Source: Mobula hypostoma
Taxonomy: Eukaryota
Direction: 5' to 3'
Assembly (NCBI RefSeq): GCF_963921235.1
Contig: NC_086108.1
Span: 50,098,001 to 50,162,000, forward strand
Length of the DNA: 64,000 bases
Part shown: positions 14,659 through 49,171 of the stretch, piece after piece
Layout: each line of letters starts with the position of its first letter
Position numbering within the stretch: the first letter of the stretch is position 1
Program-made: the position numbers and the translations under genes
The notes under the pieces: generated by a model
Database searches by the model: none
What the model saw: only the letters and a program-made list of their open reading frames with translations
Told to the model about the DNA's origin: nothing

Positions 14659-15596
14659 CCTCCAATGGGATCCCACCACTAAGCACATCTTTCCCTCCTC
14701 CCCTCTCTCTGCATTCCGCAGGGATCGCTCCCTACACAACTCCCTTGTCCATTCGTTCCCCCCATCCCTCCCCACTGATCTCCCTCCTGGCACTTATCCG
14801 TGTAAGCGGAACAAGTGCTACACATGCCCTTACACTTCCTCCCTTACCACCATTCAGGGCCCCAAACAGTCCTTCCAGGTGAGGCATCACTTCACCTGTG
14901 AGTCGACTGGGGTGATATACTGCGTCCGGCGCTCCCGATGTGGCCTTTTATATATTGGTGAGACCCGACGCAGACTGGGAGACCGCTTTGCTGAACATCT
15001 ACGCTCTGTCCGCCAGAGAAAGCAGGATCTCCCAGTGGCCACACATTTTAATTCCACATCCCATTCCCATTCTGACATGTCTGTCCACGGCCTCCTCTAC
15101 TGTGGAGATGAAGCCACACTCAGGTTGGAGGAACAACACCTTATATTCCGTCTGGGTAGCCTCCAACCTGATGGCATGAACATCGACTTCTCTAACTTCC
15201 GCTAAGGCCCCACCTCCCCCTCGTACCCCATCTGTTACTCATTTTTATGCACACATTCTTTCTCTCACTCTCCTTTTTCTCCCTCTGTCCCTCTGAATAT
15301 ACCTCTTGCCCATCCTCTGGGTCACCCCCCCCCCCTTGTCTTTCTTCCCGGACCTCCTGTCCCATGATCCTCTCGTATCCCCTTTTGCCTATCACCTGTC
15401 CAGCTCTTGGCTCTATCCCTCCCCCTCCTGTCTTCTCCTATCATTTTGGATCTCCCCCTCCCCCTCCAACTTTCAAATCCCTTACTCACTCTTCCTTCAG
15501 TTAGTCCTGACGAAGGGTCTCGGCCTGAAACGTCGACTGCGCCTCTTTCTATAGATGCTGCTTGGCCTGCTGCGTTCACCAGCAACTTTGATGTAT
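14659..15596 (+). mobile_element. PLE 3' fragment with intact GIY-YIG C-terminus and pseudo-LTR
   Basis: ORF 14879-15205 is GIY-YIG. Flanked by gttacaatgcca (14647-14658) and gttacaatacca (15597-15608), a 12-bp TSD with one mismatch. Confidence 0.9.
15502..15539 (+). ncRNA. Minimal type I hammerhead ribozyme motif (intact core)
   Basis: tagtc CTGACGA a gggt ctcg gcct GAAAC GTC gactg. Predicted cleavage 3' of GUC at 15534. Confidence 0.78.
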
Positions 15597-15655
15597 GTTA
15601 CAATACCAATAGACTGGCATGTCTGGTAAAATCAGTGTCTTTGTTTTAATTGCAG

Positions 15656-16011
15656 GGTTTCCTCCACCTCCCTATCTGGTGTCGCCACCAGTTACTTTCC
15701 AAATGACTCCTGGCTATACATTTCCACCTGGAGTCTCCATACCAGGACCTTTCATCCAAGCCACTGGCCACCCACAGTCAGGAAACCAGGTACCAGGCGG
15801 GAAGCAATCCCATGTCCCCTATAGCCAGCAGCGCCCTTCAGGACAAGGGCCAATAAACCAAGGACCCCAGCAACAGCAGCAGCAATCTCAGCAACATCAG
15901 CAGGTCACTCCATCCCAGTCACAGCTTCAGGTTCAGGTTGTGAACCAACAGTCACCCACCAAGGCAGTGCAGCCATTGGGAAAGAATCAACACCATCTCG
16001 GACCTCAGCAG
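15656..16011 (+). CDS. SMG7: SMG7 exon, Pro/Gln-rich: GFPPPPYLVSPPVTF...GKQSHVPYSQQRPSG...GPQQ
   Basis: Acceptor ttgcag|GG, donor CAG|gtaagg. 356 nt, phase 1-0, in frame with the previous exon. SMG7 motifs GKQSHxPYSQQRPSG and QSPTKAV are present. Confidence 0.95.
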
Positions 16012-16348
16012 GTAAGGCAAGTGTGGTAGATCCAAGTATTAATGAAAAGCACTGCAAGTAGATACAAAAATATAGGTTTGTAAATAATCCAATTTTTTAA
16101 ATTAGTTAATTGTCTTTTATCTTGTGAGCAGAGAATGGTCAGTCTCTGAGGTAATGCCAGCATAAAGCTATTGTATGATAGTGTTGGAAATTATCTGCAG
16201 TAGTATGTGTTTCTTCTATTTCTTAATCTGTTGTCCTACTATATATTTTTAAAAGGCATTATCCATTGACTAGATTTGGTTACACCGATTCAAGGTTTTG
16301 AATATTAATGCTTCTTTGGGAATGTTTGAAATCTATGCATTTGAAATA

Positions 16349-17939
16349 CAAACCCCATATCCAGAAAAGTTGGGATATTTTCCAAAATGCAATAAAAACA
16401 AAAATCTGTGATATGTTAATTCACGTGAACCTTTATTTAACTGACAACAGTACAAAGAAAAGATTTTCAATAGTTTTACTGACCAACTTAATTGTATTTT
16501 GTAAACATACTCAAATTTAGAATTTGACGGCTGCAACACACAACAAAGTTGAGGCAGAGGCATGTTTACCATTGTGTTACATCACTTTTCCTTTTAATAA
16601 CACTTTTTAATTGTTTTGGAACTGAGGATACTAATTGTAGTAGATTTGTAATTGGAAATTTTGTCCATTCTTGCTTGATATAAGACTTCAGCTGCTCAAC
16701 AGTCTGTGGTCTCTGTTGTCTGATTCTCCTCTTCATGATGCGCCATGCATTTTCAATAGGAGATAGATTTGGACTGGCAGCAGGCCAGTCAAGCACATGC
16801 ACTCTGTGTCTACAAAGCCACGCTGTTGTAGTCTGTGCAGAATGTGGTCTGGCATTGTCCTGCTGAAATAAGCATGGACGACCCGGGAAGAGTCGTTTCC
16901 TTGATGGCAACATATGTCTCCCTAAAATCCTAATATACGCCTCAGAATCAATGGTACCTTCACATACATGCAACTCACCCATGTCGTGGGCACTGATGTA
17001 CCCCCATATCATCAGAGATGCTGGCTTTTGCACCTTTCGCTGATAACAATCTGGATGGTCGTTTTCATCTTTGGCACAGAGAACTCGACGCCCGTTTTTT
17101 CTGAAAACTAACTGAAATGTGGACTCATCTGACCACAGCACACGATTGCACAGTCTTTCGGTCCATCTGAGATGAGCTCGGGCCCAGAGAACTTGCCGGC
17201 ATTTCTGCATAGAGTTGATGTATGGTTTCCTCCTTGCGTAATACAGTTTCAAGTTGCATTTCTAGATGCAGCGACGGACTGTGTTGAGTGACAATGGTTT
17301 TCCGAAGTACTCCCGAGCCCAGGTGGCTATAATTGTCACAGTAGCATGACGGTTTCTTAGGCAGTGCCGCCTGAGGGTTCGAAGATCAAGTGCATTCAAC
17401 AGTGGTTTCCAACCTTGCCCTTTACGCACTGAGATGTCTCTGAATTCTCTGAATCTTTTCACAATATTATGTACTGTAAATGTTGAAAGACCTAAATTCT
17501 CTGCAATCTTGCGTTGAGAAATGTTTGTTTTGAACGGACTAACAATTCTCTCACGAATTTTGGCACAAAGGGGTGAGCCATGACCCATCCTTGCTTGCGA
17601 AGACTGAGCCTTTGATGGACGCTACTTTTATACCCAGTCATGATACCTCACCTGCTACCAATTAGCCTGCTTAATGTGGAGTCTTCCAAACCAGTGTTAC
17701 TTGAATATTCTGTGCACTTTTCAATCTTATTTTAACTCTCCCAACTTTTGTTGAGTGTGTTGCAGCCATCAAATTCTAAATTTGTGTATATTTACAAAAT
17801 ACAATTACGTTGCTCAGTAAAACTATTGAAAATCTTTTCTTTGTACTTTTGTCAGTTAAATAAAGGTTCATGTGAATTATCATATCACAGATTTTTTGCA
17901 TTTTGGAAAATATCCCAACTTTTCTGGAAATGGGGTTTG
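16349..17939 (-). mobile_element. Full-length Tc1 (DD34E) transposon with frameshifted transposase
   Basis: TA on both sides and about 210-bp TIRs (caaacccca.ttccagaaaagttgggata). ORFs 17262-17588 (paired-like HTH) and 16566-17252 (WSDES, FQQDNARPH, SPNLSPIE; 34 aa between D and E). Confidence 0.95.
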
Positions 17940-18217
17940 TATATAAATAATGAAATAAACAACTTTTGTACTATTTGCTTTTAAGTTCAATAATTGTTTA
18001 TAAGATCTGCCTTTATATCCAAGTATTAAAAATAAATGTTTGTTTCACTATTCATGTGCACTTTTATTTAACCATACTCCTATTTACAATTGTTTTGTGG
18101 TATAATATGGGCATTGAAATTAGTTGTGGCCTCATTCTGCAAAAGGTGGCCTGAGCCTAATAGTTTTTGTCTTCTGATGTTGGGATTTGGGAGGTTATTT
18201 TTTTGGACTTGAAAAAC

Positions 18218-20502
18218 AGCATACAGACCACTCATCAGACGCCCCGGACCAGTTCTGAAGCAGGTGAAAACCTGGCCAGCAGGAGCCATTTCTGCTCTTC
18301 AAGACTGCTTTGAGCACACTGACTGGCTTATTTTCAGGGAGGCTGCAACTGATGGTGACTCCATCAACTTAGAGGAGTACACGGCATCAGTGACTAGTTA
18401 CATCAGCAAGTGCATCGATGACGTCACTGTGTCCAAGACCATCACTACATGTGCTAACCAGAAGCCATGGATGACAGCGGAGGTGCGTGCGCTGCTGAGG
18501 ACCCGTGACTCTGCATTCAGAGCAGGTGACAAGGCAGCCCTAACAACAGCGCTGGGCCAAACTGTCCTGGGCCATCAGAGAGGCAAAGCGTGCACACACC
18601 CAGTGAATCCACAGCCACTTCCAGGACAGTAGCAACATGGCGCATGTGGAAGGGCATTCAGGACATCACCAACTACAGGACAATATCACCTGCCTGTGCT
18701 GGTGATGCCTCCCTCCCAAATGCGTTGAACAACTTCTATGCTTGTTTTGAGGCGGAAAATGACATGGTGAGGAAGACCACTCCTCCTCCCAATGACCAGG
18801 TGCTGTGTCTTACCGTTGCCCATGTTGACCCTACGCAGGGTCAGCCCACGGCAGGCTGCTGGACCAGACAATATTCCTGGCAGAGTGCTCAAGAGGATGT
18901 GCAGACCAGCTGGCAGATGTTCTCACTGACATCTTCAACATCTCCCTGAGCAGTGCCGTCGTTCCAATGTGCTTCAAGGCCGCCACTGTCGTCCCCGTGC
19001 TGAAGAAGCCTTCAGTGTCCTGCCTCAACAACTACCATCCCGTTGCACTCACATCCATCATCATGAAATGTTTCAAGAGGCTCGTCATGAGGCACATCAA
19101 GACCCTGCTGCTCCCCTCACTGGACCCCCTGCAGTTCGCGTATCCTCCCAACCGTTCAACAGACAACGCCATTGCCATCACCCTCCACCTGGCCCTCACC
19201 CACCTGGACAAAAAAGACACATACGTTCAAATACTGTTCATAGGCTTCAGTTCAGCATTCAGTACAATCATTCCTCAGCACCTGATTGGAAAGCTGAAAC
19301 TGCTGGGCCTGAACACCTCCCTCTGCAACTGGATTCTAGACTTCCTGACTGGGAGACCTCAGTCAGTCTGGATTGGAAGCAGCATCTCCAACACCATCAC
19401 ACTGAGCATGGGGGCTCCCCAGGGCTGTGTGCTCAGTCCACTGCTGTTCACTCTGCTGACCCATGACTGTGCAGCAATACACAGCTCAAATCATATCATC
19501 TAGTTTGCCGATGACACGACCGTGGTGGGTCTCATCAGCAAGAATGATGAGTCAGCATAAAGAGAGGAGGTGCAGCGACTAACGGACTGGTGCAGAGCCG
19601 ACAACTTGTCTCTGAATGTGAACAAAACTAAAGAGATGGTTGTTGACTTTAGGAGAGCACGGAGCGACCACTCTCCGCTGAACATTGACGGCTCCTCCAT
19701 TGAGATCGTTAAGAGCACCAAATTTCTTGGTGTTCACCTGGCGGAGAATCTCATCTGGTCCCTCAACACCAGCTCCGTAGCCAAGAGAGCCCAGCAGCGT
19801 CTCTACTTTCTGCGAAGGCTGAGAATAGTCCATCTCCCAACCCCCATTCTCACCACATTTTACAGAGGATGTATCGAGAGCATCCTGAGCAGCTGCATTA
19901 CTGCCCGGTTCGTGAATTGCACCATCTCAGATCGCAAGGCCCTGCAGCGGATAGTGAGGTCAGCTGAGAAGATCATCGAGGTCTCTCTTCCCGCTATTAC
20001 AGACATTTACACCACACGCTGCACCCGCAAAGCTAACAGTGTTATGAAGGAGCCCATGCACCCCTCACACAAACTCTTCTCCCTCCTGCCATCTGGCAAA
20101 AGGTACCGAAGCATTCAGGCTCTCACGACCAGAATGTGCAACAGTTTCTAACCCTGAGCCATCAGATTCCTCAATACTCAGAGTCTGGACTGACATGTAC
20201 ATCATTTATTATTATATTGTAATTTGTCCTCTACTGTGCCTGTTGTCTTGTTTATTAATTATTGTACTGCCCTGCACTGTTTTGCGCACTTTATGTAGAC
20301 CTGTGCAGGTCTGTAGTCTAGTGCAGTTTTTATGTTGTTTTCGCGTAGTCTGGTGTAGCCTTGTGCTGTCTCACATAGTCTAGTGTAGTTTTGTGTTGTT
20401 TCATGTAGCACCAGGGTCCTGGAGAAACGTTGTTTCGTTTTTACTGTGTACTGTGCCAGCAGTTTATGGTCGAAATGACAATAAAAGCGACTTGACTTGA
20501 AC
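18218..20502 (+). mobile_element. Rex1/Babar-like non-LTR retrotransposon, 5'-truncated, with stops
   Basis: Motifs [56 protein letters not shown] and AQQRLYFLRRL. Tail aataaaagcgacttgacttga. Confidence 0.85.
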
Positions 20503-20719
20503 TGAGAAAATAGCATACTTCTTGTACCTTATTTATATTAAATATATTTAAGACATTGTGTCTCAGCATTATAAGGTGCATAAATGGATTTTTGTTGTGA
20601 TCTTTTATCAGACAGTACTTGTAGAATGCTTGTCTAATAAAAGGATTGAAGGCCTTGTTGTGATAGGTGAACAATTTTTGCTTCCTTGCAATTAAACTCC
20701 TTTATTTTCTCTCAATGAG

Positions 20720-20975
20720 TATCTGCAGGCTGATCAGACCAACCAGCTTTGGAATCAGCATCATCCAGTCTCCTCTCAGCATCAGAAAAATTCCATACAG
20801 ATGTCTCTGAAGCAACAGCCCTATTACATGCATCAGGACCCTCTGAAGCTATTTGAAAAGTCTCTTCAACAATCACAAGTCCAGATGGAAAAGAATCTGA
20901 AGGGTTTTGCTATGGAGCCTTTTACCCAGAATCCTTCAGATGTGCAAAAATTGCAGGACTTTGCATGGGACTATG
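20720..20975 (+). CDS. SMG7: SMG7 exon: YLQADQTNQLWNQ...QDPLKLFE...AMEPF...WDY
   Basis: Acceptor atgag|TAT, or in-frame ctgcag|GCT at 20729; donor G|gtaagt. Resembles mammalian YQQAD..QLWN, QDPIKLFE, MEPY and WD. The 5' boundary is uncertain by 9 nt. Confidence 0.88.
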
Positions 20976-21449
20976 GTAAGTTAAATGTGCATGGGTATCC
21001 TTGTGCAATGAACCTCAAGAGCAATTCTGATTAATATATTGAAGTCTATAGCGTATCATAATTAATGTGTAAACTGGTTGTTAAGGAAGCCAGTTTCTAC
21101 CTGGTTGTTAATTCATAACCACAATCCATCAAGGCCTTTATCCATGATCCCACGTTTCACATCGTATGTTTCAGCTTGCTGTCAACCAGGACCTTACTCT
21201 GGTAGCTACAGATTAAGCCACCATTCCTGACCCTATCTTCAACCGTGCTCCAGCTATTGATATTTTACTATTTAGCACAATCCATCTGACAGCAAACTGG
21301 CGGAGTACCAAAGGAAAACGATCCCAAGCTGTGCCCTATATTTACCAACCTTTATAGTAGTACGTGGTTGACTTAATATATGAATGTGCATATAATAAAT
21401 CAGTAGATAATGAGAGCTTAGTTTATCTCTCTTTAATCAGGTTTGAATA

Positions 21450-21720
21450 AAGATTATTTTATTTGTCACATATACTTTGAAGCATACGAAGAAATGCATC
21501 GTTTAGTGTCAATGACCAACACAGCCCGGTGATTGCTGGGACAGCCCGCAACTGTTGCCATGCTTCCAATGCCAACAAGGCACACCACAACTCACATAGC
21601 TTAACTGTACATCTTTGGAACATGATAAAAAAAAACCAGAGCATCCGGAGGAAACCCACACAGTCGTGAAAGAATGAAGAGTGGAAATAGAACCCTGATT
21701 GGTGTTTGCTGTCTCTGCAG
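21450..21720 (-). mobile_element. V-SINE-like element (decayed)
   Basis: Similar to 5230-5520 (tttatttgtcacat, gtacatctttggaa, gagcatccggaggaaacccacacagtc). Confidence 0.55.
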
Positions 21721-22285
21721 CAGAGCTGAAGTTTGATTACATTTTAAATACTTTTTCTGTTTATTTCTTGATCACTAATATGTCCCAATTGGCTTCCTTA
21801 AATTTCTGTTTTATCCTGCTAGCTGTAACTTTATTAGGATACTGTCTTGTATAGGGCTCATTACAATAGTTGAACTAAAGAATAACACTTGAGCATATTG
21901 TCTACTTATCCTACTGAATTTAAAAAAACAGTGCTACACTGACTTTAGTACAAATATGTTTCATTTTCCCTGTAGCTTTCCTAATTTTATATGTTGAACA
22001 GCTTAAGTCCCTAATACTTAAAATGAGCCCTCTAAAATTTTCAAAGGGAATTGTTGTTGATCCAGTGATTTTCTATTAACCATTAATAAACAATATGAAC
22101 TTTGAAAGGAAGAACTCAAGTAGATGTTCCTCATCTTGATTATTGTATAGTAAATTACTGAAGTTATCAAGAAGGGCATGAGAAGTTGATATTGTTGAAA
22201 GGAAAATTTGAGATGGCGAGTAAATAATCTGTGAAATAGCGCAGCCCATGTGATTTCATGTCATTAAAAATGTTTCTTCTGTCAG

Positions 22286-22395
22286 ACATGCGACATATGA
22301 TGGGACATCAGCTGAATAATGATCATATGGTGAAACGGCATCCAGGGGTTTTCCGAACAGACCAAGATAATATGACTAGAATACAGTCATATGAG
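22286..22395 (+). CDS. SMG7: SMG7 exon: DMRHMMGHQLNNDHMVKRHPGVFRTDQDNMTRIQSYE
   Basis: Acceptor tgtcag|AC, donor GAG|gtaagc. 110 nt, phase 1-0, keeps the frame. KRxPGVFR motif present. Not in the ORF track. Confidence 0.9.
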
Positions 22396-22527
22396 GTAAG
22401 CTGTAAATAATTTTAAATAGCATTTGGTGCCATATGCACAATAAAGTCTGTGTATATATAAAGTTGTATTTCAATCTTGGGTTTGTTTCTTTGTATTTTT
22501 GTCAGAAGAAAAATGTTAATTTTAATA

Positions 22528-23189: not shown

Positions 23190-23449
23190 TATTTAGTTTG
23201 AGATTCTAAATCCATCTTCTTTAACATCTTTTTGTGAATAACCTGTGCAATGTAGGAAAGCTTTGTGCATGAAAGTAAAGTAATAGAAGATGTGAGCAGA
23301 AAATGCAAATTGAATTAATTTAAAGAGACAAATTAATAAATGCAATGTGTAATTGATTTTCTATTTTAGTATATTTTGCTTTGGGTCATCTTATTAACAT
23401 GTGGCTTTTGGAAAAGGACATTTTGTTGAAATTGACATCAGTAGTAACT

Positions 23450-26592: not shown

Positions 26593-26742
26593 GATGCCAA
26601 GAGCTCACCTCTGTTGCCTCCTGACTTGTTAAAAAGTATTGCTGACTTTGAGGAGGAGGAAGAGCTGGCTTTTTCCAAACCCCATGATTTCTACCAGGCC
26701 TTGGCTGGCCCTCTTGGCAGTTCTTCGGGGCGTGGTTTCTTT
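26593..26742 (+). CDS. SMG7: SMG7 150-nt symmetric exon: DAKSSPLLPPDLLKSIADFEEEEELAFSKP...GRGFF
   Basis: Long pyrimidine tract, ctatag|GAT, donor TTT|gtatgt. Phase 0-0. Matches SMG7 KSSPLLPPDLLKS..EEEEEL. Confidence 0.93.
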
Positions 26743-29295: not shown

Positions 29296-29356
29296 ATGTA
29301 ATTAACTTCATTCATTATCAACACATATGTAACTAACTTCATTCATTATCAACACT
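29296..29356. repeat. About 31-bp tandem duplication
   Basis: atgtaa(t/c)taacttcattcattatcaacac occurs twice in tandem. Confidence 0.85.
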
Positions 29357-29511
29357 AACTTACAGATAGTGGTAGTCTTTGGTCTGCTTTTGCCCAAAGC
29401 CCAATCCTTTTGATCATTAGCTCTTGAGATATAGCTTAAGCTGCTAACTGATCAAAGCTTTGAGATGACTGTGTCCTCACCAGTGCTGCAGGCTTCCTAC
29501 TGCAGAACTTA

Positions 29512-34400: not shown

Positions 34401-35705
34401 AAGAAAGACTGCACGTCTGGCCAAAAGAGAAGCAAAAGACAATGTACTACGTTTGGTCGGACTCAACTTCTCCCGAGCTGCCAAAAAGAACAGTCAGAGG
34501 GTTAGGATCCAAATAGTAGTTAAGTATATGGGATAAAGTTTAAAAAAAAATCCCTCCAGAATTTCTCCAAGCTAGGACAAGTCCAGTACAAATGAATAAG
34601 TGAAGCCTCGCCCCATTTACACTTGTCGCAACAGGGATTAATATTAGGATAGAACCGCGATAATTTAGTTTTAGAGACAATGAGCTCTGTGTACAATCTT
34701 GAACTGTGAAAGGCAGTGGCGAGCACATAAAGAAGTTGAATTAACTGACTTGAGAATTGAATCCCATGCCTCGTCGGACAGAGGAAAAATTTAAATCATG
34801 CTCCCATGATGAGTGTTGGGTAGATTGAACTTTACAGACAGCTGTTCAAAAGTTGCAAAGCGATTGTCTATGAAAAGATTTTCAAAGCACCTAATACCCT
34901 TTCTGTGCCAGTCTTGAAATGTGAAATCCTGCGTAGAAGGCTGAAAAAGACGATTATGTAGACTAGGACTAGCGAGAGAGAAACCGTGAAGACCATTATA
35001 TCTCCTGAACTGAGCCCATGTTCTCAGAGTGTGTCTGATAACAGGATTAACAATTGATTTAGACAGATGGCAAGAAAGTGGGGATCCAAGAAGTGTGGGA
35101 ATGGAGCGATTTTTATAAGCGTTCAACTCCATTGCCAGCCATATTGGGCAGTTAGACTGAGTATAAAAGTAAGGCCAAAAGATAAGACAACGTGTGTTGG
35201 CTGCCCAGTAATATAAATGAAAATTGGGCAAGGCCATACCTCCTACCCTTTTAGGTTTTTGAAGGTGAGCTTTATTTAGTCTGGGACGTCTGCCCTTCCA
35301 TAGATAATAATAGAAATAATAGAATCTAACGAAATTTTTTAAAGAAAAGCTTTAGAAATAAAAATTCGTAAAGATTGAAATAAGTATAAAAACTTAGGAA
35401 GGGTATACATTTTAACAACATTAGTTTAACCTATTGGAGACATAGACAGGATGACCACTGTACTAGATTCTGTTTTGTATGGTTTAAAAGATTAGTGAAA
35501 TTTTCTCCAAAAAGACGCTTATAATTCCTTGTTACTGTAATGCCAAGGTAAGTAAATTGATTATTTACTACTTTAAAAGGGAGGTTATGAAATTCTAATA
35601 TTTGTGCTTCTCTGTTTATTGGAGAGAGTTTGCTCTTATGTAGATTAAGTTTGTATCCGGAAAGCTGGCTAAATTTGTTAAGGTGTGAAAACATTGGGGA
35701 TAAGG

Positions 35706-36150
35706 TAGCCTCCAACCTGATGGCATGAACATCGACTTCTCTAACTTCCGCTAAGGCCCCACCTCCCCCTCGTACCCCATCTGTTACTCATTTTTATGCA
35801 CACATTCTTTCTCTCACTCTCCTTTTTCTCCCTCTGTCCCTCTGAATATACCTCTTGCCCATCCTCTGGGTCACCCCCCCCCCCCCGTCTTTCTTCCCGG
35901 ACCTCCTGTCCCATGATCCTCTCGTATCCCCTTTTGCTTATCACCTGTCCAGCTCTTGGCTCTATCCCTCCCCATCCTGTCTTCTGCTATCATTTTGGAT
36001 CTCCCCCTCCCCCTCCAGCTTTCAAATCCCTTACTCACTCTTCCTTCAGTTAGTCCTGACGAAGGGTCTCGGCCTGAAACGTCGACTGCACCTCTTCCTA
36101 CAGATGCTGCTTGGCCTGCTGCGTTCACCAGCAACTTTGATGTATGTTGC
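35706..36150 (+). mobile_element. PLE pseudo-LTR fragment inserted in L1 ORF2
   Basis: Near-identical to 15155-15599. 10-bp TSD ggggataagg at 35696-35705 and 36151-36160. Confidence 0.92.
36051..36088 (+). ncRNA. Minimal type I hammerhead ribozyme motif (intact core)
   Basis: tagtc CTGACGA a gggt ctcg gcct GAAAC GTC gactg. Confidence 0.78.
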
Positions 36151-39100
36151 GGGGATAAGGAGGTAGTCGGATTTGATATTAAAAAGTAAAAGATCATTAG
36201 CATAAAAAGAGACTTTGTGCTCAACAACCCCCACCCACCCCCGTCAATTCAGCACAGCTACGAAACGCAATCGCCAGTGGCTCTATGGCCAGATCAAAAA
36301 GTAAGGGACTTAAAGGGCACCCTTGCCGGGTGCCGCATTTAAGGTTGAAAGGCTGGAATTGCTGAGAGTTGGTCAAGACAGAAGCAGTAGGGTGTGAATA
36401 TAACAATTTAATTCATGTAATAAAACTTCGTCCAAAATCAAATTTTTCTAAAAGCACAAAAAGGTAATACCACTGCACACGATCAAACGCTTTCTCTGCG
36501 TCTAAAGAAATGACACATTTGGGAATCCCAGCTGAAAGTGAGTATAAGGTATTAAATAGACGCCGTATATTTAAAAAAAAAGGGAGACAATTTTTAATAA
36601 AACCAGTTTGGTCTTCAGAAATAATTAAGGATAGAATGTTCTCCAATCAGCGGGCCAAAACTTTAGCCAAAATTTTAACATCAACATTTAGCAAAGAGAT
36701 TGGTCTATAGGAAGAACACTCTGATGGATCTTTGCCTTTTTTTGCTAAAAGAGTGATACATGCCTCATTAAATGATGCTGGCAACTTACTTTGTTTAAAC
36801 GAATCAGATAAAACTAAAATTAGTTAAGGCGAAAGCAGTGAGGAAAATGATTTATAGATTTCTACAGAGAACCCATCAGGTCCAGGAGATTTACCAGACT
36901 GCGATACTGAAATAGCTGGGGATATTTCCTCTAATGATAATGGCTCATTCAATTTTGCTTTGAGATCAGGAGAAAGCGTAGGAATATTTAAACTATTTTA
37001 AAAAATGCTCGACAGAGATAATATCATTTAAAGATTCAGAAGTATAGAGTCGAGAATAGTAATTCTTGAATGTGTCATTAATTTCAGAATGATTCAAAGT
37101 AATGTTCCCATTTCCCATTCGATTTTTTGTAATATGTTGTTTAGCTTTAGAGCGTCTTAGTTGGTTAACTAAAAATTTACCGGATTTATCACCATGGATA
37201 TAAAACCAGCTCTTACTTTCCAAAAGTTGGCGTTCAATTGGGTGAGTGGAAATAAGGTTAAACTCAGGTTGAAGTTCCACTCGTTTCTTATACAACTCAG
37301 GATTTTTGGTCTGGGCATATAGTTGGTCTGTTGCTTTAATTTGATTGACCAGATCTAATCGCTCTTTATGGGTCTTCCTTTTCAAATTCACAGTATTGAA
37401 ATTATTTGACCCCTTAGGTATGCTTTCATAGTGTCCCAAACAACCTGATTTGAGGTTTCAGATGACGTGTTAATTTTTTTTAAAAACGTTATCTGGTCCT
37501 CCATAAATTTTACAAAATTATTATCTGACGACAGGGTCAGATTAAAACGCCAATGCTTATTCTTTTGGGGGAACCAGGAAGAATTATAGACGGTGACTGG
37601 GGTGTGATCTGAAATCAATATACCCTGATAGTCACAAGAGCAAACAGATGGAATCAGCTGATTATCAATTAGAAAATAATCAATTCTAGTAAAAGTGTGA
37701 TGGTCATGTGAAAAAAAAGTAATCGCTCTCATTTGGATGGAGAAAACGCTGTACATTGGAGATACTGTAATTGGAAAGGAAAGACTGAACTGGTAGTCTA
37801 GGAATAGAGGACGATCGATCCGAAACTGGATCTAACCAACAATTAAAATCACTGCCCAATATGAGAGAATACGAACTCATCTCAGGCAATAAAGAGAAAA
37901 AAACTAGCAAAAAACTCCACATCATCCAAATTGGGAGCGTCTAAGTTAGCCAGTGTGTTATATAATTTCCCCGAGACAATAATAAATTGACTGTTTGTAT
38001 CAGATACCTTGTTATGAAGCTCAAAGGGAACATTTTGATTTATAAGATTTGGGACTCCCCTAGCTTTAGCCTGAAAAGTAGAATGGAAGTGCTGCTCCAC
38101 CCATCTCGACATGAGACGAGAGTTATCAGAACTGCGAATGTGTGTTTTTTGCTAAAAAGCAATTGCTACATTAAGCTGTTTAAGATGTGAAAACACCTTC
38201 CTTCTTTTAACAGGATGGTTCAATCCCTTAACATTCTGACTTACAAAACTCAACAGACTAATCATTGTCCTTTTTTAAAAAAAGAATGAGGATAGTAGGC
38301 AAAAGCATTGTCAGAAATTCGAGTAACAGCTCTGGGGCAAAAGTATAAAACAAGAAAAACAGGACAGAAATACGTCCTGAATAATACAAATATCTAAAGG
38401 TTCTATGAATAATATTGACATTAGAGTTCCCTCCACCCCACACACACCCCACGGCAAGGGAGCTACCGAAAAGCAACAGCAAGCTCTTCAAAAAAAAAGT
38501 CACCCCATAACCCAACTTCCTGTCTCTTAACATCGTCATCAGCTCCATCTTGTCTCAATTACAAACCAGAAAACTTTTAGCACTACAAACTAAAGTTATA
38601 CATAGTGAAAAGAAAAACAATTCCACCAAAATTTAAGCGTAACTCAAGGTAATAATCCAAAAAAAAGATGTGAACTAGTATTTTAGAAAAAAATAAACAA
38701 GTAAATGGACTTTACCCAGTGACCTACCTGCAAGAAAGTATGAAAAAAAATTTACTGACTTAAGAAAGAAAGATCGGGGGAAAAATAAGCGGGGAGAAAA
38801 AGTACTTCACCACCAGTATGAGTAATCGAACTGAATGTGAGGGACTCGAAGTAACAGGGAGGCTTTCGATAAATTTCTGGGCTTCTGTAGCCGAGTTAAA
38901 CCACTTTTTGCCTCCACTAGTAAGAGATAATCTGAGGCGAGCTGGAAATCAAAGGGAAGGCCTGAATCTGCAATTATATAGTTCTTTCATGACTCCTTTA
39001 TACTCTGCTCACAGACTCAGAACTTGGGGAGCATAGTCCTTGACAACACAAATTAATTTCCCCTTGTATTCCAACATCCCTCTCCAACGGGCTTCTTTAG

Positions 39101-40829
39101 CCAAGAGATCTTTAATCTGGTAGCGATAAAAACAAATAATTACAGGGCGTGGCCTGTGCCCCGGCTCTGGTTTAGGCGCTAAGGTACGATGAGCTTTATC
39201 TCAGGCGGAGTCGAAAGTATATCATTCCCAAAAATCTCACATAGCAAAGTGAAGAAAAATTCAGCAGGGGGTCCACTTTCGATAGACTGGCAAGCCGAGA
39301 ATACGTAGATTTTGAGTCTGCCCTGACTTTCCAGGTCGGTAACTTTGGATACTAGCTTGCTGTTATGATCTCTCAAGCTGGAACAAACATTTTCCAACTC
39401 TTTAAAACGGCAGTCTAAATCATCTGTGCAAACTCGAGATGTGAAATAAGCATTGGGCATGATCCTCCACTTTGGATTTAATTTGATCCAATTTCGATTC
39501 CAACGAACTGAAAGAAGACTTAAATTCAGTAATTATCTCCTGTCGATGCTGTTCTAATAATGAGATAATGTTTTCGCTCGAGAAACTGGCTGCTGGAACT
39601 TCTTTTTTCCCCGATTTGGTGGTCTTTGGAGCCATTATAAAACAGGTGCATTCGTAGGCAGGAGGGAGAATAAAAAATTTAACAGTTTGGAGTAAAAAAA
39701 AGAGAGAAGGAGTGCGGAGATAAGAAATAGAACAGAGTGATAGCTTTTAGCGACTAAACCATCGCCATCTTGACCAGAAGTCCACAAAACCTTCTGATGG
39801 AATTCTGGTTCCTTTCCAGTTCAGATGCAAACCGTCCCTTTTGTGCAGGTCCCATCTTATTTGGAAGAGATCCCAATGGTCAAAAATCGGAAGCCCTCCC
39901 TCCTGCACCTACTCCTTAACCACATGTTAAACTGTATGATCTTCTATGTCTGGCCTCACTAACATGTAGCATGGGTATCAGTCCTGAAATCACAACCCTG
40001 GCAGTCTTGTTCTTTGGCTAAGTACCTAACTCCCTGAACTCACTTTGCAGGGCCTTGTGACCCATCCTACCCATGTCATTGGAATACAACCTCTGGCTGC
40101 TCACTCTCCCACCTAAGAATGCTGTGGACTCGATCCATGATTTCCTTGACCCTGGCACCCAGGAGGCAACAAACCACCCTGGAATCTCTTTCTCATCCAC
40201 GGAACCTCCTTTTTGCCCCTCTAACCAAAGAAGTCCCTATTACTGCAGCTCGCCTTTTCTCCCCCCTTCCCTTCAGAGCCACAGAGCCAGACTCAGTGTC
40301 AGAGACTTGTTCACTGCCAGTTCTCAGGTAGATCATTCGCCGCCTCTCCCCCCAAAGCAGCATCCAAAGTCATATACTTGTTATTGAGAGGAACAGCCAG
40401 AGGAATACACGTCACTGGCTGCATATTCCCTTTCCCTCTCCAGGTCATCTGGTTCTTTCTCCTTGATATATCTATACTTACTTTATACTTTATTGTCGCC
40501 AAACAATTGATACTAGAACGTATAATCATCATAGTGATATTTGATTCTGCACTTCCCGCTCCCTGGATTACAAATCGATAGTAAATATTAAAAATTTAAA
40601 TTAGAAATCATAAATAGAAAATAGAAAAATGGGAAGTAAGGTAGTGCAAAAAAACTGAGATGCAGGTCCGGATATTTGGAGGGTACGGCCCAGATCCGGG
40701 TCAGGATCCGTTCAGCATACCTGTTTATCCTTCATGAAATGACTTACAAATGAATATGATGGCAAATGTTTATCTGAGGACAGCATTTGTTGGGGGGGGT
40801 GGGGAGAGTATTGTCCAATTTATTGACAT

Positions 40830-41095
40830 ACAGTGCAGAGTAGACCCTTCCGGCCCCTCAAGCCATGCCGCCCAGCAATCCCCCAATTTTATCCTAGCCT
40901 AATCATGGGACAATTTACAATGACTAATTAGCTTACCAATTGGTACTTCTTTGGACTGTGGGAGGAAACTGGAGCACCCAGAAGAAACCCATACAGTCAT
41001 GGGAAGAACATACAAGCTCCTTACAGGCATTGGCAGGAGTTGGACCGGGGTTGCTGGTACTGTAAAGCAATGTGCTAACCGATATGCTACCATGC
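40830..41095 (-). mobile_element. V-SINE (HE1-like) element
   Basis: Contains ggacaatttacaatgactaatt, ttggactgtgggaggaaactggagcacccagaagaaacccat and gctaaccgatatgctacc (tRNA head on the minus strand). Confidence 0.65.
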
Positions 41096-41319
41096 TGTTT
41101 CTGTTGAAGCTCAATGTGAATGGTGATGTTGGTAAGTGCACAGGGAATGGTGTATCTGGAGAAGTGGTTACGTGATGTCCAAGAGCATGTCAGAAGAAAT
41201 GAAGGTACAATTTGATGTACTAAGTTGTATACTAATTCAGTAAAATAATTCTTGTACTAAGTATTTAGGCTCTTGCTCTCTAAAATAGACTTATTCCTCC
41301 ATTGATAGGAAAGAATATT

Positions 41320-42352
41320 CCAGTGACCAGTAGTGTTCCACAAGGGTCCATGTTGGGACTGATTCTTTTTAACGTTATATGTCAGTGATTTGGATGATGG
41401 AGTTGGTGACTTTGTTGCAAAGTTCGCAGACAATATGAAGACAGGTGGAGGGGCAAGTATTTTTGAGGATGTAAAGAGGCTGCAGAAGGACTTGGATTAG
41501 GAGAATGGGCAAAGAAATGGCAGATGGAATACAGTCAGGAAGTGTATGGTCCTGCACTTTTGGTAGAAGAAATGAGAGGGTTAACACTCTCTAAATGGAG
41601 AGAAAATACAAAAACGTGAGCACAAAGGGACTTGGGAATCCTTATGCAGGATTCCCTAAAGGTGAGTTTGCAGGTTGAGGCTGCAGTGAGGAAGGCAAAT
41701 CTGATGTTGGCATTTATTTCAAGAAGACTAGAATATGAATGCAAGGCTGTAATGTTGAGACTTTATAAAGCACTGGTGAGGCCTCACTTTGAGTAGTGTG
41801 AGCAGTTTTGAGCCCTTTATCTTAGAAAGGATGGCTGAAACTGGAAGGGGTTCAAAGGAGATTCACGAAAATGATTCCAAGTTTGAACGGCTTGTCAAAT
41901 GAAGAGGAAGGTCGTGGGTCCGCTTGTGGCTCTGGACCTATATTCACTAGAATTCAGAAGAATGAGGGGTGACCTCATTTAAACCTATCAAAAGGTGAAA
42001 GACCTTGATAGAGTGGATGTGGAGAGGATGCTTCCTATGGTGGGAGAGTCTAAAACCAGAAGACACAGCCTCAGGATAGAGGCTTTTAGAACAGAGATGA
42101 AGAAGAATTTCTTTAGCCAGAGAGTAGTAAACCTGTGGAATTTTTTTTGCCACAGGCAGCTGTGGAGGCCAAGTTTTCATGCATATTTAAAGCAAATTGA
42201 TAATTTCTTGATTGGTCATGGCATGAAGGGATACATGGGGAAGGCAGGAGATTGGGGCTGAGAGGAAAATTGGATCAGCCATGATGAAATGGTGGAGCAG
42301 ACTTGATGAGTGAAATGGCCTAAGTCTGCTCCTATAGCTTATGGTCTTATGG
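41320..42352 (+). mobile_element. CR1 LINE 3' fragment
   Basis: Segments resembling VPQGS.LG, KFAD and RGDLI. Tail cttatggtcttatgg. Confidence 0.85.
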
Positions 42353-44534
42353 TCCAATATGTCTCTCCAGTTTCTCAGCAGCATATTGAGGAGGATATCA
42401 CAAAAGTGAGATGCAGTTTTTGCCCACAAAAACGTCATTCTGGAGCTTTTTATCTTTGCTTTCCACCTAAACTACGTGAAGTTGCATGTTTTGAATATTC
42501 CTTTTAAATATTAAGACATGTCATTATTGTTTGGACAGTAAATTTGGATGTAAGCTTACAATGAGTAGTTAAGAAATTATTGTCAAGTATTGACAACTAC
42601 CTACAGGTAGGCAGATGACTGTGAGTAAAATGGAAGGATATGGACCTTGTGTACGCAGAAGAGATTAATTTAGTTAGCTATATAGTTACTAATTTAATTG
42701 GTCGGCACAACATTGTGACCTGAAGGTCCTGTTCCTGTGCTGTACTGTTCTGTTTTCTGTTTTAAGACATACATTTCTCATACTCAGGTTTGAAAGCTAT
42801 CTTAAAATAAGATGCTTTACTCTTGGGAAACTTGATCATGGCAAATTAAATCTATTATTTCTTTATTGGATAAAGATATTAATGACTGTAATCAGAATTT
42901 TGCTTGTAGTCGTTATAAAATATCAGTTAAGCCACATAATATCTGCTCTAAGCTGTTGAATGAAGTGACATTCTGATTGCATAATTTGAAAAATACCTGA
43001 ATCATCCAGCATGCATGCAATGAACACATATAATGTCTTCAAAGGAACAGTATACATCCAGATGAAATTGTATTGTGCTCTTGATTATACTATATTGATT
43101 GTACTATTTGCATATAGAGTTGGAAAGAATAATGTTTAAACGAAAACCTAACAATGGAATATGCTCTTTTCATTGGGATATTCTTCCTGTTTTTATCTTT
43201 ACCTACTTAGTTGTTGTACATTACTTTCATACATTGTCCATTTGAAATATGTGGAAAGAAAATAAGTCAAAGTAACAAATTCTCTGAATGCATGAATTTG
43301 AACTCAGTTCACCTTTTTTTGATGGTGTTAAAACCCTGCACTTCTATTATGATTATGATCATTGATAACAGTTGTATGTTGTGCAAGTTCTGCACAAGAT
43401 ATGTCCAAATGAGGACATAGCAGCAATCCGGTTTGTGGTTTGCTGCAAGTAGAATCTGAATGTGCAGTAAAATTAAGAATCATAATAGTTGCTATTTACA
43501 TTAATGTTATATGTGTAGTACCATCCTGATACTGAACAAAATACTTGTCAGTCATTCCTAATGGCTGGTGACCATAAATTGAGGAAGAAGCCTCTTAGTT
43601 CTTGGCTTTGCCCACAAAAAATGAATATTTTAGGTACTGTTTCTTAGGATCTTTGTAAGCCTTCATGTCGATCATTAATTATGTCATTCTGTCCTTACTT
43701 TGGTTGTATAGGTAACTTACATTTTACAACACAACTCAGCTCTGGCCCTGGACTTTCTTTTCTTTTCCTTCATCTCCTATAGACTCATGCTGTAACTGTC
43801 ACAAACAGTTTAGTAAGTTGACCATGATGCCTTTTACCCAAGGCCTTCATTAGATTTTGGAGACACACACGATCTGTTTTTCACAAATGGCAAAGTCAGT
43901 TGATGTCTTCTGTCAATTTTGTACATTTCCAACCATCCCATTTCTTGTATTTCCTTTTTACTTATGCACGCTGTACCACTTATAAAACAACCAACTTTAA
44001 GTACAAGTATGCATTAGACTAAATGGGATATGGATATTTATAACTCCTCTGATAGACTCTGATATGATCATCTGTTTTGATTGTACTGGTTAAACAAAAT
44101 CAATGCAAAAAAGATAAGCGTAGATGAATATTAAAACAGATAGGTAAAACACTTGTGCAGAGAGCATAAGGATACTGCAAAAGCATATTGATAGAAAAAG
44201 AGAGTAGATAAATGTTGATCAAAGATGTAATGTGGAAAAATGTATAATTCTCCATTTTGGCTGCAAAAAAAAAGAGAATTTTAGCTACATGGTAAGAGAT
44301 TGGTCTGACATGCAAGAGTATCCAGTTCAGCTACTCGTGATCCACAAAAGTAATTAATTAGGCAAGCCAGGAGAATGCTTTTGGTTACTGCTAGGGGAAT
44401 TGAAAATTAGGAGTGGAAATTAGACTACTGTATACATGGCATCAGTGAGGCCACATCCGAAGTTCTGTTTACATTCTCAATATAAAAAGTTACAAATATA
44501 TTGGCAGCAATGAAGATTTAATCAAGATGTAAGT

Positions 44535-45615
44535 GCGAGAGATTCTGCAGATGCTGAAAATCCAGAGCAGCACACAAAAAATGCTGGAGGAACTCAGTAG
44601 GTCAGATCACATCTATGGAAGTGAATAAACATTCGATGTTTTGGACTGACCCCCTTCATCGGGACTGAAGAGGAAAGGGGGAAGAAGCCAGAATAAAAAG
44701 GTGAGAGAAGCGAAGCTAGAAGGTGGTAGGTGAAGCAAGGTGGGTAGGTGAAGGGGATGAAGTAAGAAGCTGAGAGGTGATACGTTGGAAAGGCAAGGAC
44801 TGGAGAAGAAAGGAATCTGATAGGAGAGGAGAGTGGACCGGAAGTTTGGGGAACTTGATATTCATGTGCTCAGGTTGGAGGCTACCTAGGTGGAATATGA
44901 GGTGTTGCTCCTCCAACCTGAGAATGGCCTCAGCTTGACAGAAGGAGGCCATGGATCATCATGTAAGAATGGGGGTTAGAATTGGAATGGCTGGCCACTG
45001 AGAAATCCTACTTTTTGCGGATGGAACGAAGGTGCTTGACAAAATGGTCCCCCAATTTACGGCGAATTTCACCAATGTAGAAGAGGCCTCATCAGGAGCA
45101 CTAGATACAGTAGCCGCCCCAAACAGATCTGCGGGTAACGTGTTGCCTCACCTGGCAGGACTTTTTGAGGGCTGAATGGAAGTGTGGAGGAAGTGACTGG
45201 GTAGGTATAGCACTTCTGCTTGCAGGGATAAGTGCCAGGAAGGAGATTAGTGGGGAAGGACAAATGGAAAAGGGAATCACGGAGGGAGTGATCTCTGCAG
45301 ATGGTGAAAGTTGGGGGGGGGGGTGTGGAGAGGTAAAGGTGTGTTTGGTGGTAGGATAATATTGAAGATAGCAGAAGTTACGGAGAATGATGCATTGGAT
45401 GCGGGGTGGTAGGTGAGGACAAGAGGAACTCTATCCCTGTTAAGGTGGTGGGAAGATGGTATGAGCAGAGATGTTCAGGAAATGGAGGAGATGCAGGTGA
45501 GGGCAGCATCAATGGTGGAGGAAACCCCATTCTTTCAACAAGGGACACATCTGAGGGCCTGGAAAGGTGAACCTCATCCTGGAAACAGATGCGGCACAGA
45601 CAAAGGAACTGAGAA
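44535..45615 (-). mobile_element. Older, diverged PLE copy
   Basis: ORF 44716-44952 reads LRLEEQHLIFHLGSLQP. Also present: a degenerate hammerhead near 44630-44668, the tail ctgcagatgctg, and an SQFL..RIC remnant near 45600. Confidence 0.8.
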
Positions 45616-48346
45616 AATAATAATAAAGATGTAAATGGAATGGGTGAGTTGTCTTATGAAGAAAGCCTAGATAAGCTTTGTAGTTTAAATGGGAGTTTAG
45701 AAGAATGAGCAGTGGTTTCATTGAAGCATACAAGGTTCCTAAGACTGTTTGACCATACGACATAGGAACAGAATTAGACCATTTGGCCCATCAAGTCTGC
45801 TCTGCCATTCAATCGTGGTTGATCCTTTCTTCCCTGGCCTCCTCCTTGTAACCTTTGATGCCGTGGCCAATCAGGTACGTATCAATCTCCACTTTAAATA
45901 CACCCAGCGACCTTTCCTCTACTGCTGCTTGTGGTAACAAGTTCCACAAACTCACCACCCTCTGGCTGAAGAAATTTCTCCATATCTCTGTTTTAAATGG
46001 TCATCCCTCTATCCTAGGCTGTGCCCTCTTGTCATAGACTTCCACACCATGGGAAACATTCTTTCCACATCTACTCTGTCCTAGGCCTTTCAACATTTGA
46101 AAGGTTTCATTGAGATCCACCCCCCCATCCGAAATTCCAGCGAGTATAGGCCCAGACCCGTCAAACATTCCTCATATGATAACCCTTTCATTCCTGGAAT
46201 CATCCTTGTGAACCTCCTGTGAACTCTCTCCAATGCCAGAACATCTTTTCTTAGATAAGGAGCCCAAAACTGTTTACAATACTCAAGATAAGGCCTCACC
46301 AGTGCCTTAGAAAGCCTCAGCATCACATCCCTGCTCTTAAATTCTAGACCTCTTGAAATGAATGCTAACATTGCACTTGCCTTCCTCACCACTGATTCAA
46401 CCTGCAAGTTAACCTTTAGGATGTTCTGCACAAGGACTCCCAAGTCCCTTTGGTTCTCAGAATTTTGGATTTTCTCTCCATTTAGAAAATAGTCTGCACA
46501 TGTATTTCTTCTACCAAAGTGCATGACTATGCATTTTCCAACGTTGTATTTCATCTGCCACTTTCTTGCCCTTTCTCCTAATTTGTCTCAGTCCTTGCTG
46601 GAGCCTTCCTGTTTCCTCAACACCATCTACCCCTCCACCAATCTTCGTATCATCTGCAAACTTGGCAACAAAGCCATCTATTCCATCGTCTAAGTCATTT
46701 ATGTACAGCATAAAAGGAAGCGATTCCAACACTGACCACTGCATAACACCACTAGTTACTGGCAGCCAGCCAGAAAAGGATCCTTTTATTCCCACTTGCT
46801 GCCTTCTGCCAGTCAGCCAATACTTAGTCATGCTAGTAACTTTACTGTAACACCATGGGCTCTTAACTTGGTAAGCAGCCTGATGTGTAGCACCTTGTCA
46901 AAGGCCTTCTGAAAGTCTAAATATACTACATTCCCTGCATCCCCTTTATCAATTCTACTTGTAATCTCCTTAAAGAATTCCAACAGGTTCATCAGGCAAG
47001 GTTTCTAAGGAGATCATGTTGACAGTGTCCTATTTTGTCCTGCGTAACCAGGTACTCCATAACTTTATCCTTAATAATTGACTCCAGCATCTTTCCAACC
47101 ACCAAGGTCAGGCTAACCAGTCTATAATTTCCTTTCTGCTGCCTCCCTCCTTTCTTAAAGAGTGGAGGGACATTTGTAATTTTTTAATCCTCTGGAACTA
47201 TGCCAGGGTCCAATGATTTTTGAAAGTTTATTACTAATGCCTCCACAATCTCTACTGCTACCTCTTTCAGAACCCTAGGGTGCAGTTCATCTGGTTCAGT
47301 TGACTTATGTACCTTTAGGTGTTTCAGCTTTTTGAGCACCATCTCCCTTGTCATAGTAACTGCACTCACTTCTCTTCCCTCATACCCTTCAACACCTGGT
47401 ACACTGCTAGTTGCTTCCACAGTGAAAACTGACGCAAAATACGCATTTAGTTCATCTGCCATCTCCTTGTCTCCTGTTATTATTTCTCCAGCCTCCCTTT
47501 CTTGCTGTCCTATATCCACTCTGATCTTTTTTTTAATATACTTCAGAAAGTGCTTTCTATCCACCTTGATATTGTTTGCTAACTTACTTTCATATTTCTT
47601 CTTTTCCCTCCTAATGATCTTTTTAGATGCTTTCTGTAGGTTTTTAAAAGCTTACTAATCCTCTGTCTTCCTGCTAATTTTTGCTTTGTTGTTTGCCCTC
47701 TCTTGTGCTATTACATTAGCTTTGACCTCCCTTGTCAGCCACAGTTGTACTATTTTGCTATTTGAGTATTTCTTTGTTTTTGGAATACATCCATCCTGCA
47801 CCTTCCTCAATTTTTCCAGAAACTCAAGCCATTGCTGCTCTACTGTCATCCCTGCCAGCATCTCCTTCCAATGTACTTTGACCAACTTCTTTCATACCAC
47901 TGTAATTTCCTTTACTTTAATGAAATACTACATCAGACTTTACTTTCTCCCTATTAAATTTCAAATTGAACTCAATCTGTTGTGATCACTGTCCCCTAAG
48001 TGTTCCTTTACCTTAAGCTCCCTGATCACCTCTGGTTCATTACATAACATCCAATCCAGTATAGCGGATCCCCTAGTACTCAACAACAAGCTGCTCTAAA
48101 AAGCCATCTCGTAAGCATTCAACAAATTCACTCTCTTGAGATCCATTACTAACCTGATTTTTCCAAATCTACCTGAATGTTAAAATCTCCCATGACTATG
48201 ATAACATTGCCCTTTGGCACACCTGTTCTATTTCCTATTGCATTTTGTAGTCCACATCCCAGTTTGGAGGCCTGTATATTACTGCCATCAGGGTCCTTTT
48301 ACTCTTGCACTTTCTTACCTCAACCCACAAGGATTCAACATCTTCT

Positions 48347-49171
48347 CAAACACGAGGAAATCTGCAGATGCTGGAAAGAGTGGAACAAGTGCTACACATG
48401 CCCTTACACTTCCTCCCTTACCACCATTCAGGGGCCCAGACTGTCCTTCCAGGTGAGGCGACACTTCACCTGTGAGTCGACTGGGGTGATATACTGTGTC
48501 CGGTGCTCCCAATGTGGCCTTCTATATATTGGCGAGACCTGATGCAGACTGGGAGATCATTTCGCTGAACACCTACGCTCTGTCCGCCAGAGAAAGCAGG
48601 ATCTCCCAGTGGCCACACATTTTAATTCCACGTCCCATTCCCATTCTAATATGTCTATCCACGGCCTCTACTGTAAAGATGAAGCCACACTCAGGTTGGA
48701 GGAACAACACCTTATATTCCATCTGGGTAGCCTCCAACCTGATGGCATGAACATTGACTTCTCAAACTTCCACTAATGCCCCACCTCCCCCTCGTACCCC
48801 ATCTGTTATTTATGTATATACACACATTCTTTTGCTCTCTCTCCTTTTTCTCCCTCTGTCCCTCTCACTATACCCTTTGCCCATCCTCTGGGTTTCCCCC
48901 CTCCCCCTTTTTTTTCTCCCTAGGCCTCCTGTCCCATGATCCTCTCATACCCCTTTTGCCAATCAACTGTCCAGCTCTTGGCTCCATCCCTCCCCCTCCT
49001 GTCTTCTCCTATCATTTTGGATCTCCCCCTCCCCTTCCCACTTTCAAATCTCTTACTAGCTCTTCTTTCAGTTAGTCCTGACGAAGGGTCTCGACCTGAA
49101 ACGTCGACTGCATGCTTCCTAGAGATGCTGCCTGGCCTGCTGCATTTACCAGCAACTTTGATGTGTGTGGC
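48347..49171 (+). mobile_element. PLE fold-back remnant: about 30-nt inverted tail plus GIY-YIG/pseudo-LTR arm
   Basis: 13-bp TSD ttcaacatcttct at 48334-48346 and 49172-49184. 48347-48377 is the reverse complement of the PLE tail. Confidence 0.9.
49073..49110 (+). ncRNA. Minimal type I hammerhead ribozyme motif (intact core)
   Basis: tagtc CTGACGA a gggt ctcg acct GAAAC GTC gactg. The stem II U-G pair is U-A here. Confidence 0.78.

Follow-up and report, generated by a model that had tools for sequence, protein, structure and literature searches.

Minimal Penelope-type hammerhead motifs in SMG7 introns of Mobula hypostoma, probable passive passengers of element tails

Minimal hammerhead ribozymes (min-HHRs) are known from the pseudo-long terminal repeats (pLTRs) of Penelope-like elements (PLEs), where the sections of Cervera and De la Pena (2014, PMC4209133) drawn on here describe them as type I motifs with a 5-bp helix I, one unpaired nucleotide that separates position 9 from position 10.1, a palindromic 15.2-16.2 and no helix III, occurring as thousands of dispersed single copies on truncated PLEs. 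According to the same sections, min-HHR monomers are inactive and dimers weak, mostly at non-physiological Mg2+, and an excerpt of PMC6765202 gives low rates even for dimers. For PAc, a Poseidon PLE from Anolis (Frangieh et al. 2024, PMC11167929), the hammerhead is described as protein-assisted, mutants still insert, unprocessed RNA is the main insertion substrate in vitro, and no RNA-seq reads end at the cut site in the results excerpted. The present work deals with 64,000 nucleotides of the ray Mobula hypostoma (NC_086108.1, positions 50,098,001 to 50,162,000 of the forward strand; hereafter the window, meaning this whole stretch), in which motifs of this kind lie on the tails of PLE insertions in introns of the SMG7 gene. 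We put the probability that these hammerheads are passive passengers in the SMG7 introns at roughly four in five. The kind is already published as the minimal hammerhead of PLEs, and the motifs described here are a further member of it.

Compared with the min-HHRs of PMC4209133, the motifs of the window agree in the type I form, the length of helix I, the unpaired nucleotide, the palindrome and the lack of helix III, but differ in the young subfamily, whose 4-bp helix II opens with G-U and not with the G10.1-C11.1 pair that those authors call highly conserved; cartilaginous fish go unmentioned in the sections of that paper drawn on. With PAc they have in common a vertebrate PLE carrying an endonuclease, a hammerhead in the pLTR, an optional 30-40 bp tail and insertions from uncut RNA, whereas the ray family bears a CX4CxxC linker (a type given for both Neptune and Nematis elements in the relevant part of PMC8557442) and is represented in the window only by truncated copies known from sequence alone. 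Like the CPEB3 and amniote intronic hammerheads (PMC10919898, PMC6765202, both in excerpt), they are self-cleaving-type motifs lying in sense in an intron of a regulatory gene; unlike those single conserved loci, of which CPEB3 has a half-life of 2-3 min, they are young repeats with no helix III when alone. The non-LTR retrozymes described in part of Li et al. (2026, bioRxiv 10.64898/2026.07.22.740005) likewise carry type I hammerheads derived from PLEs, in vertebrates with one chondrichthyan among them, but are head-to-tail tandem and lack open reading frames (ORFs), while the dispersed copies here keep endonuclease-coding remnants.

The window was scanned with a core pattern allowing at most one mismatch, with 100 shuffles as control. 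Five exact matches to the CUGANGA and GAAA boxes plus UH were obtained, together with one single-mismatch match, against a shuffle mean of 0.02, and 0 of the 100 shuffles reached six. The motif region is present in eight arms, five of them sense (3061, 15502, 36051, 49073 and 55850) and three antisense (1237, 55823 and, near 53310, an older arm). Core and stems are both intact in four arms (15502, 36051, 49073 and antisense 1237), and core changes were found in 55850, 55823 and 53310. The arms are as follows:

15502..15539, + strand, minimal type I hammerhead motif with an intact core and G10.1-U11.1; the predicted cut follows C17 at 15534
36051..36088, + strand, minimal hammerhead motif with an intact core and G10.1-U11.1; the predicted cut follows C17 at 36083
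49073..49110, + strand, minimal hammerhead motif; core intact, G10.1-U11.1, loop-side pair U-A, predicted cut after C17 at 49105
3061..3098, + strand, hammerhead copy with a stem I mismatch; G1.1>A at 3094 breaks the pair adjoining the cut site
1200..1237, - strand, fully intact hammerhead copy, antisense to SMG7
55850..55887, + strand, hammerhead copy with a broken core; A6>C, stem I mismatch, G10.1-C11.1
55786..55823, - strand, decayed hammerhead copy with several core changes, antisense
53177..53310, - strand, older PLE tail with a decayed hammerhead, about 76% identical

Helix I has 5 bp and helix II 4 bp, with 95% of the stem cells paired as against 13-48% in slid controls. An extra A stands between positions 9 and 10.1 (position L), and the palindromic 15.2-16.2 is CG. 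The 10.1-11.1 pair is G-U in five young arms and G-C in the other three, the consensus G10.1-C11.1 being absent from the young arms. The original prediction, made on the letters of this DNA, had placed three sense motifs at 15502, 36051 and 49073, and its stem I starts and C17 positions (15534, 36083 and 49105) were reproduced, as were the stem I mutant at 3061, the antisense copy at 1200, the extra A after the CUGANGA box and the ACGU palindrome; the antisense copies at 55823 (mutated) and near 53310 (older) came in addition to its list. Its description of the three as having intact cores holds for the core itself, but all three have G10.1-U11.1 instead of G-C. A covariance-model search, offered as a check on it, came out negative, as a scan with Rfam 15 returned no hammerhead family among eight matches with E up to 10. 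Further copies of the family were sought by pattern scan, and the six matches in viral contigs were all without the family flanks, with 0 matches in metagenome contigs. At the level of sequence, these are confirmed as genuine minimal type I hammerhead motifs of Penelope type with a palindromic stem III, lying in sense in SMG7 introns.

The motifs sit in the tails of PLE insertions of the GIY-YIG kind, which bears out their earlier assignment to the minimal type I hammerheads of PLEs, whose stem III is palindromic. Matches to GIY-YIG were detected in fragments of the window, one of three above the Pfam cut-off, and the window is without a reverse transcriptase (RT) core. The longest PLE frame has 76 homologues among 1043 candidates, many of them full-length with RT plus GIY-YIG, and these give an element layout of a single ORF in which RT is followed by a C-terminal GIY-YIG. 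The CX4CxxC linker, present in insertions 1 and 2, fits the CX2-5CxxC Neptune linker, and by its sequence the element's linker appears to be of Neptune/Nematis type; a literature search on Neptune elements in sharks or rays found nothing on point. The motif is located about 300 nt past the stop of the GIY-YIG ORF and about 60-100 nt short of the element end, or in a fragment of that tail. Six young insertions were delimited, each with its own target-site duplication (TSD):

1133..3194, mixed strands, PLE insertion 1; made up of an inverted copy at 1133-1851 (-), a short RT piece, also inverted, near 1853-1937, and a direct copy that reaches 3194 and carries the tail of about 30 nt; 14-bp TSD
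14656..15599, + strand, PLE insertion 2; 5'-truncated, with a Zn-linker and GIY-YIG frame open as far as its stop near 15205, then a pyrimidine-rich 3' region and the hammerhead, but lacking a tail; 8-bp TSD
35704..36150, + strand, PLE insertion 3; 447 bp, 10-bp TSD
48349..49176, + strand, PLE insertion 4; an inverted tail at 48349-48377 precedes a direct copy at 48379-49176, 13-bp TSD
55723..55983, mixed strands, PLE insertion 5; short inverted pair, 15-bp TSD
62498..62638, mixed strands, PLE insertion 6; short inverted pair, no hammerhead core, 13-bp TSD

All six are 5'-truncated, four have inverted arms, and some carry a tail of about 30 nt at one end; 5' truncation, inverted copies, TSDs and an optional 30-40 bp tail are among the PLE traits given in the relevant parts of PMC8557442 and PMC11167929. 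Insertions 1-3 are mutually 97-98% identical and insertion 4 stands at 89-91%, and the TSDs together with the 97-98% identity between copies indicate that the insertions are recent. Each of the seven young motif-bearing arms spans the predicted cut site, so that they were copied from uncut RNA, in agreement with the role of unprocessed RNA as main substrate in vitro (PMC11167929). Insertion 6 was considered as a copy of cut RNA and ruled out, its inverted arm extending at least 3 nt upstream of the cut site.

Some further observations concern the carrier. Several TSDs (1126-1139/3194-3207, 55721-55735, 62485-62497 and 48334-48346) overlap or resemble the element 3' end, which hints at priming microhomology. 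Insertion 1 constitutes a 727-bp, 96% inverted repeat that would form a long double-stranded RNA hairpin in the SMG7 pre-mRNA, a possible source of editing or small RNAs. The gene models P0134 and P0212 of Hypanus sabinus and P0211 of Mobula hypostoma, named as DIPK1C and STARD3NL isoforms, are largely or partly PLE-family sequence, probably through mis-annotation or exonization; P0211 had no match when searched against PDB.

That SMG7 on the + strand is the host gene, as had been predicted, was established by protein match and exon mapping. The exon at 15656-16011 is 98% identical to SMG7 of Mobula birostris, and its top matches are SMG7 proteins of rays, skates and sharks. Ten SMG7 exons were mapped, all of them + strand, the first beginning at about 6150 and the last holding the stop at 63214; the bounds at 6150..6294, set by tblastn plus GT/AG, and those at 20720..20975 and 26593..26742 are good to about +/-3 nt:

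6150..6294, + strand, SMG7 coding exon upstream of the intron with the 15502 motif
15656..16011, + strand, SMG7 coding exon
20720..20975, + strand, SMG7 exon
22286..22395, + strand, SMG7 exon
26593..26742, + strand, SMG7 exon present in some isoforms only
51969..52055, + strand, SMG7 exon ending the long intron with the 36051 and 49073 motifs
54620..63214, + strand, span of the last four SMG7 coding exons (about 54620-54779, 55304-55477, 59114-59262 and 63101-63214, including the stop)

The exon at 26593-26742 occurs in Narcine and Hemitrygon isoforms and not in the SMG7 protein P0001, which marks it as alternatively spliced. The intron at 6295-15655 holds the 15502 motif, with the cut site 121 nt ahead of the acceptor and the end of insertion 2 at 56 nt upstream of that acceptor, while the 36051 and 49073 motifs share another, long intron that ends at 51968. 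The distance is 20.5 kb from 15502 to 36051 and 13.0 kb from 36051 to 49073, and only 2.9 kb remain from the 49105 cut site to the next exon. The sense neighbours of 15502 lie 12.4 kb upstream, within the 727-bp inverted repeat, and 20.5 kb downstream. With the mammalian transcription rate of 3.5-4.1 kb/min given in an excerpt of PMC10919898, the 36051 motif would wait 3-4 min for 49073, after which less than 1 min is left to the next exon; for the 15502 motif, its own acceptor would be transcribed within seconds.

Folding was predicted with ViennaRNA nearest-neighbour energies, without tertiary terms or an active-dimer control, so that the values are relative only. Helix III, having no loop, cannot form in a monomer. 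In the bare 38-mer, stems I and II form, but G5-G8 pair with the palindrome and the cut site in an inactive rod with a probability of 0.79-0.97. With at least 15 nt of upstream flank, a hairpin of -10.0 kcal/mol pairs the pyrimidine tract with the core and the stem II probability falls to 0.01-0.05; with at least 30 nt of flank it is at most 0.10. Removal of the flank brings stem II from 0.02-0.04 up to 0.75-0.92, yet the monomer then goes into the other inactive rod. The upstream hairpin is no rarity, since 22, 30 and 40 of 300 shuffled flanks folded as low (7-13%). The strand-swapped active dimer is predicted to lie 10.5 kcal/mol above two monomers when bare and 13 to 23 kcal/mol above them with 30-60 nt flanks, as well as 19-34 kcal/mol above the best misfolded dimer. 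Splicing was unaffected by slow ribozymes placed in introns (Fong 2009 as cited in PMC10919898), and the part of PMC3365414 drawn on holds nothing on intron cleavage.

Sequence variation among the arms gave no indication of selection on the motifs. Among seven distinct, closely related rows, compensatory covariation in the stems was not seen, with 0/9 pairs changed on both sides and a score of 0.212 equal to the shuffled mean of 0.212, 431 of 500 shuffles scoring as high. The stem II variants of the original prediction, U-A at 49094 and G-C at 55874, are indeed where it placed them, but both are one-sided, 0/9 pairs being compensatory, and the G-C variant sits in the 55850 copy with the A6>C broken core; stem II 'covariation' was consequently rejected as evidence of selection. 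Across five arms, 2/38 motif columns are variable as against 55/401 outside (Fisher p=0.20), so that extra conservation is not shown. For the origin of U11.1, the decay rate of CpG in 9/55 cells gives odds of about 1 in 1500 for four independent events, and independent CpG decay was rejected on these odds in favour of inheritance; an active source element probably carried U11.1 already and passed it on. In that event the wobble is tolerated, or else copies can be made without cleavage; a literature search found no measurement of a G10.1-U11.1 hammerhead. As to orientation, 5/8 motif-bearing arms are sense to SMG7 (p=0.73), so sense copies are not depleted, and 6/8 main bodies are sense when the older two are included (p=0.29). 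Harmful cutting would have produced the reverse of a sense excess.

Taken together, these data point to a Penelope-like family, with RT then GIY-YIG and a CX4CxxC linker, that bears a minimal type I hammerhead in its pLTR and has inserted six times recently into this intron stretch of SMG7. Each copy arose by reverse transcription begun near the element 3' end, leaving it 5'-truncated, sometimes inverted and TSD-flanked, and the template was uncut RNA, since the copies cross the predicted cut site. Once in the SMG7 pre-mRNA, the motif is computed to adopt inactive folds, with either the upstream hairpin over the core or a rod pairing the core with its own cut site; judging from the literature, cutting would require a second copy and probably the element's protein. 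The motif is thus most likely silent and removed with the intron, and nothing in the results points to the motifs cutting or regulating the SMG7 transcript. Some points weigh against this. Nearly every young copy keeps an intact core, with variation below that of the flanks, though not significantly; in each of the six young insertions the main body runs sense to SMG7 (6/6, p=0.03, a small sample), which passive carriage does not predict and which may reflect strand-biased targeting; the folding energies show competition, not impossibility; and dimer cleavage by such motifs has reportedly been described by Lunse et al., to go by the title.

The original prediction went further and supposed that several copies in one transcript pair in cis and cut the SMG7 introns. 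In such a case, two sense copies would swap strands through stem I and ACGU, form a double hammerhead, cut the intron and lower SMG7 output. As a secondary structure the swapped dimer is valid, held by 14 intermolecular pairs, but the misfolded dimers are predicted to be 19-34 kcal/mol stabler and, in context, stem II stays at or below 0.10 and the active dimer is 13-23 kcal/mol worse than the monomers. Although 36051 and 49073 lie in the same intron, the copies are 13.0 and 20.5 kb apart, with 2.9 kb left after 49105 and 121 nt after 15534. Dimer cleavage is known for the class (PMC4209133; PMC6765202) and an intronic ribozyme can tune its host mRNA, as in CPEB3 (PMC10919898), both on the passages excerpted, whereas the motifs here have G10.1-U11.1 in place of the pair called highly conserved in PMC4209133, show no covariation, and belong to insertions that are young and independent of each other, unlike a conserved regulatory element. 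We regard cis cutting, on these models, as very improbable. Cutting might instead be conditional, such that where the PLE is expressed, for example in the germ line, the RT-endonuclease protein or PLE RNA in trans aids the intronic copies, and the outcome would be collateral damage to host pre-mRNAs, SMG7 among many, and not regulation. The protein assistance of the anole PLE hammerhead (PMC11167929, in part) and the youth of the family speak for it; however, the anole protein, as we understand the same passages, binds ORF sequence downstream of the pLTR, which is absent from the tail-only copies here, and the undepleted sense arms given above do not suggest such damage. Xenopus retrozymes are under-represented in introns in the part of Li et al. 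(2026) drawn on, but these are tandem and 42-44% of them are still intronic. Conditional cutting is therefore judged highly unlikely.

Another way in which the 15502 copy could matter concerns splicing, through a candidate site of the PLE that abuts helix I:

15481..15500, + strand, candidate CAG acceptor within the PLE, together with its pyrimidine tract and candidate branch point, judged by sequence features and folding; AG at 15499-15500

If the acceptor and not the cut were functional, splicing into the candidate PLE site would unmask the ribozyme, and the 15502 copy would compete with the SMG7 acceptor and yield a frameshifted mRNA sensitive to nonsense-mediated decay (NMD), a course that we consider very unlikely on sequence and modelling. 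In this copy, the CAG at 15498-15500 ends one base before helix I, preceded by a 90% pyrimidine 20-mer, a branch-point-like CTCAC and a 95-nt AG-free zone, but two copies carry a new AG 10-29 nt upstream and no matching PLE donor was identified. The tract at 15481..15500 also supplies the 5' arm of a hairpin at 15488-15518, in which it pairs with the hammerhead core, and the -10.0 kcal/mol hairpin, with the rise of stem II to 0.75-0.92 once the flank is gone, would fit unmasking; against this, such hairpins are common among shuffled flanks (22, 30 and 40 of 300) and the flank-free monomer takes another inactive rod (0.79-0.97). The genuine SMG7 acceptor follows 155 nt downstream, and splicing at the candidate site would add 155 nt, a frameshift and a premature stop at about 15647; an insertion at this junction was seen in 0/128 SMG7 proteins, though an isoform with a premature termination codon would hardly be listed. 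The Mobula birostris gene model P0210 fuses unrelated sequence to PLE peptide exactly at the site, in phase 1, but the phase-1 peptide occurs in only 2/536 candidates, both computed Mobula gene models, and the second, P0211, begins 2 residues upstream of the site and so gives no evidence of acceptor use. The Penelope intron of D. virilis terminates at helix I (PMC4209133, in the section concerned), and SMG7 mRNA rises on depletion of NMD factors in human cells (PMC3783168, likewise in part); a literature search on hammerhead or Penelope exonization found nothing on point for vertebrate PLEs. A splicing-gated hammerhead could be imagined from these features, in which the pyrimidine tract doubles as an anti-ribozyme arm, splicing into the copy strips the block, the element traps host exons and cuts itself free, and SMG7 gains an NMD feedback switch, but this too is a long shot. 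If true, the switch would be one that a transposon had built, in the 15502 copy, into a gene for a factor of NMD itself.

Apart from the PLE insertions, the window harbors other repeats. At 16400-17896 lies a Tc1/mariner-type DNA transposon whose inverted ends measure 142 bp and whose DDE_3 transposase, on the - strand, is broken. The sequences at 56106-58971, 7333-9200, 46090-47651 and 13763-14528 are presumably CR1-like remnants of long interspersed nuclear elements. The frame 56868-58292 is open for 474 aa and holds an RT domain, and a remnant of another non-LTR retrotransposon with RT-like frames is found at 18213-20151. At 10641-10846, a 92-bp inverted repeat with a 22-nt spacer resembles a miniature inverted-repeat transposable element and is the source of weak microRNA-precursor matches below gathering scores.

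In summary, the motifs are best read as passive passengers of PLE tails in the SMG7 introns, and the finding as it stands is of minor import, adding one more genome with Penelope tail hammerheads. If, on the other hand, intronic copies cut host pre-mRNA or trapped exons, the repeat family would tax gene expression genome-wide.

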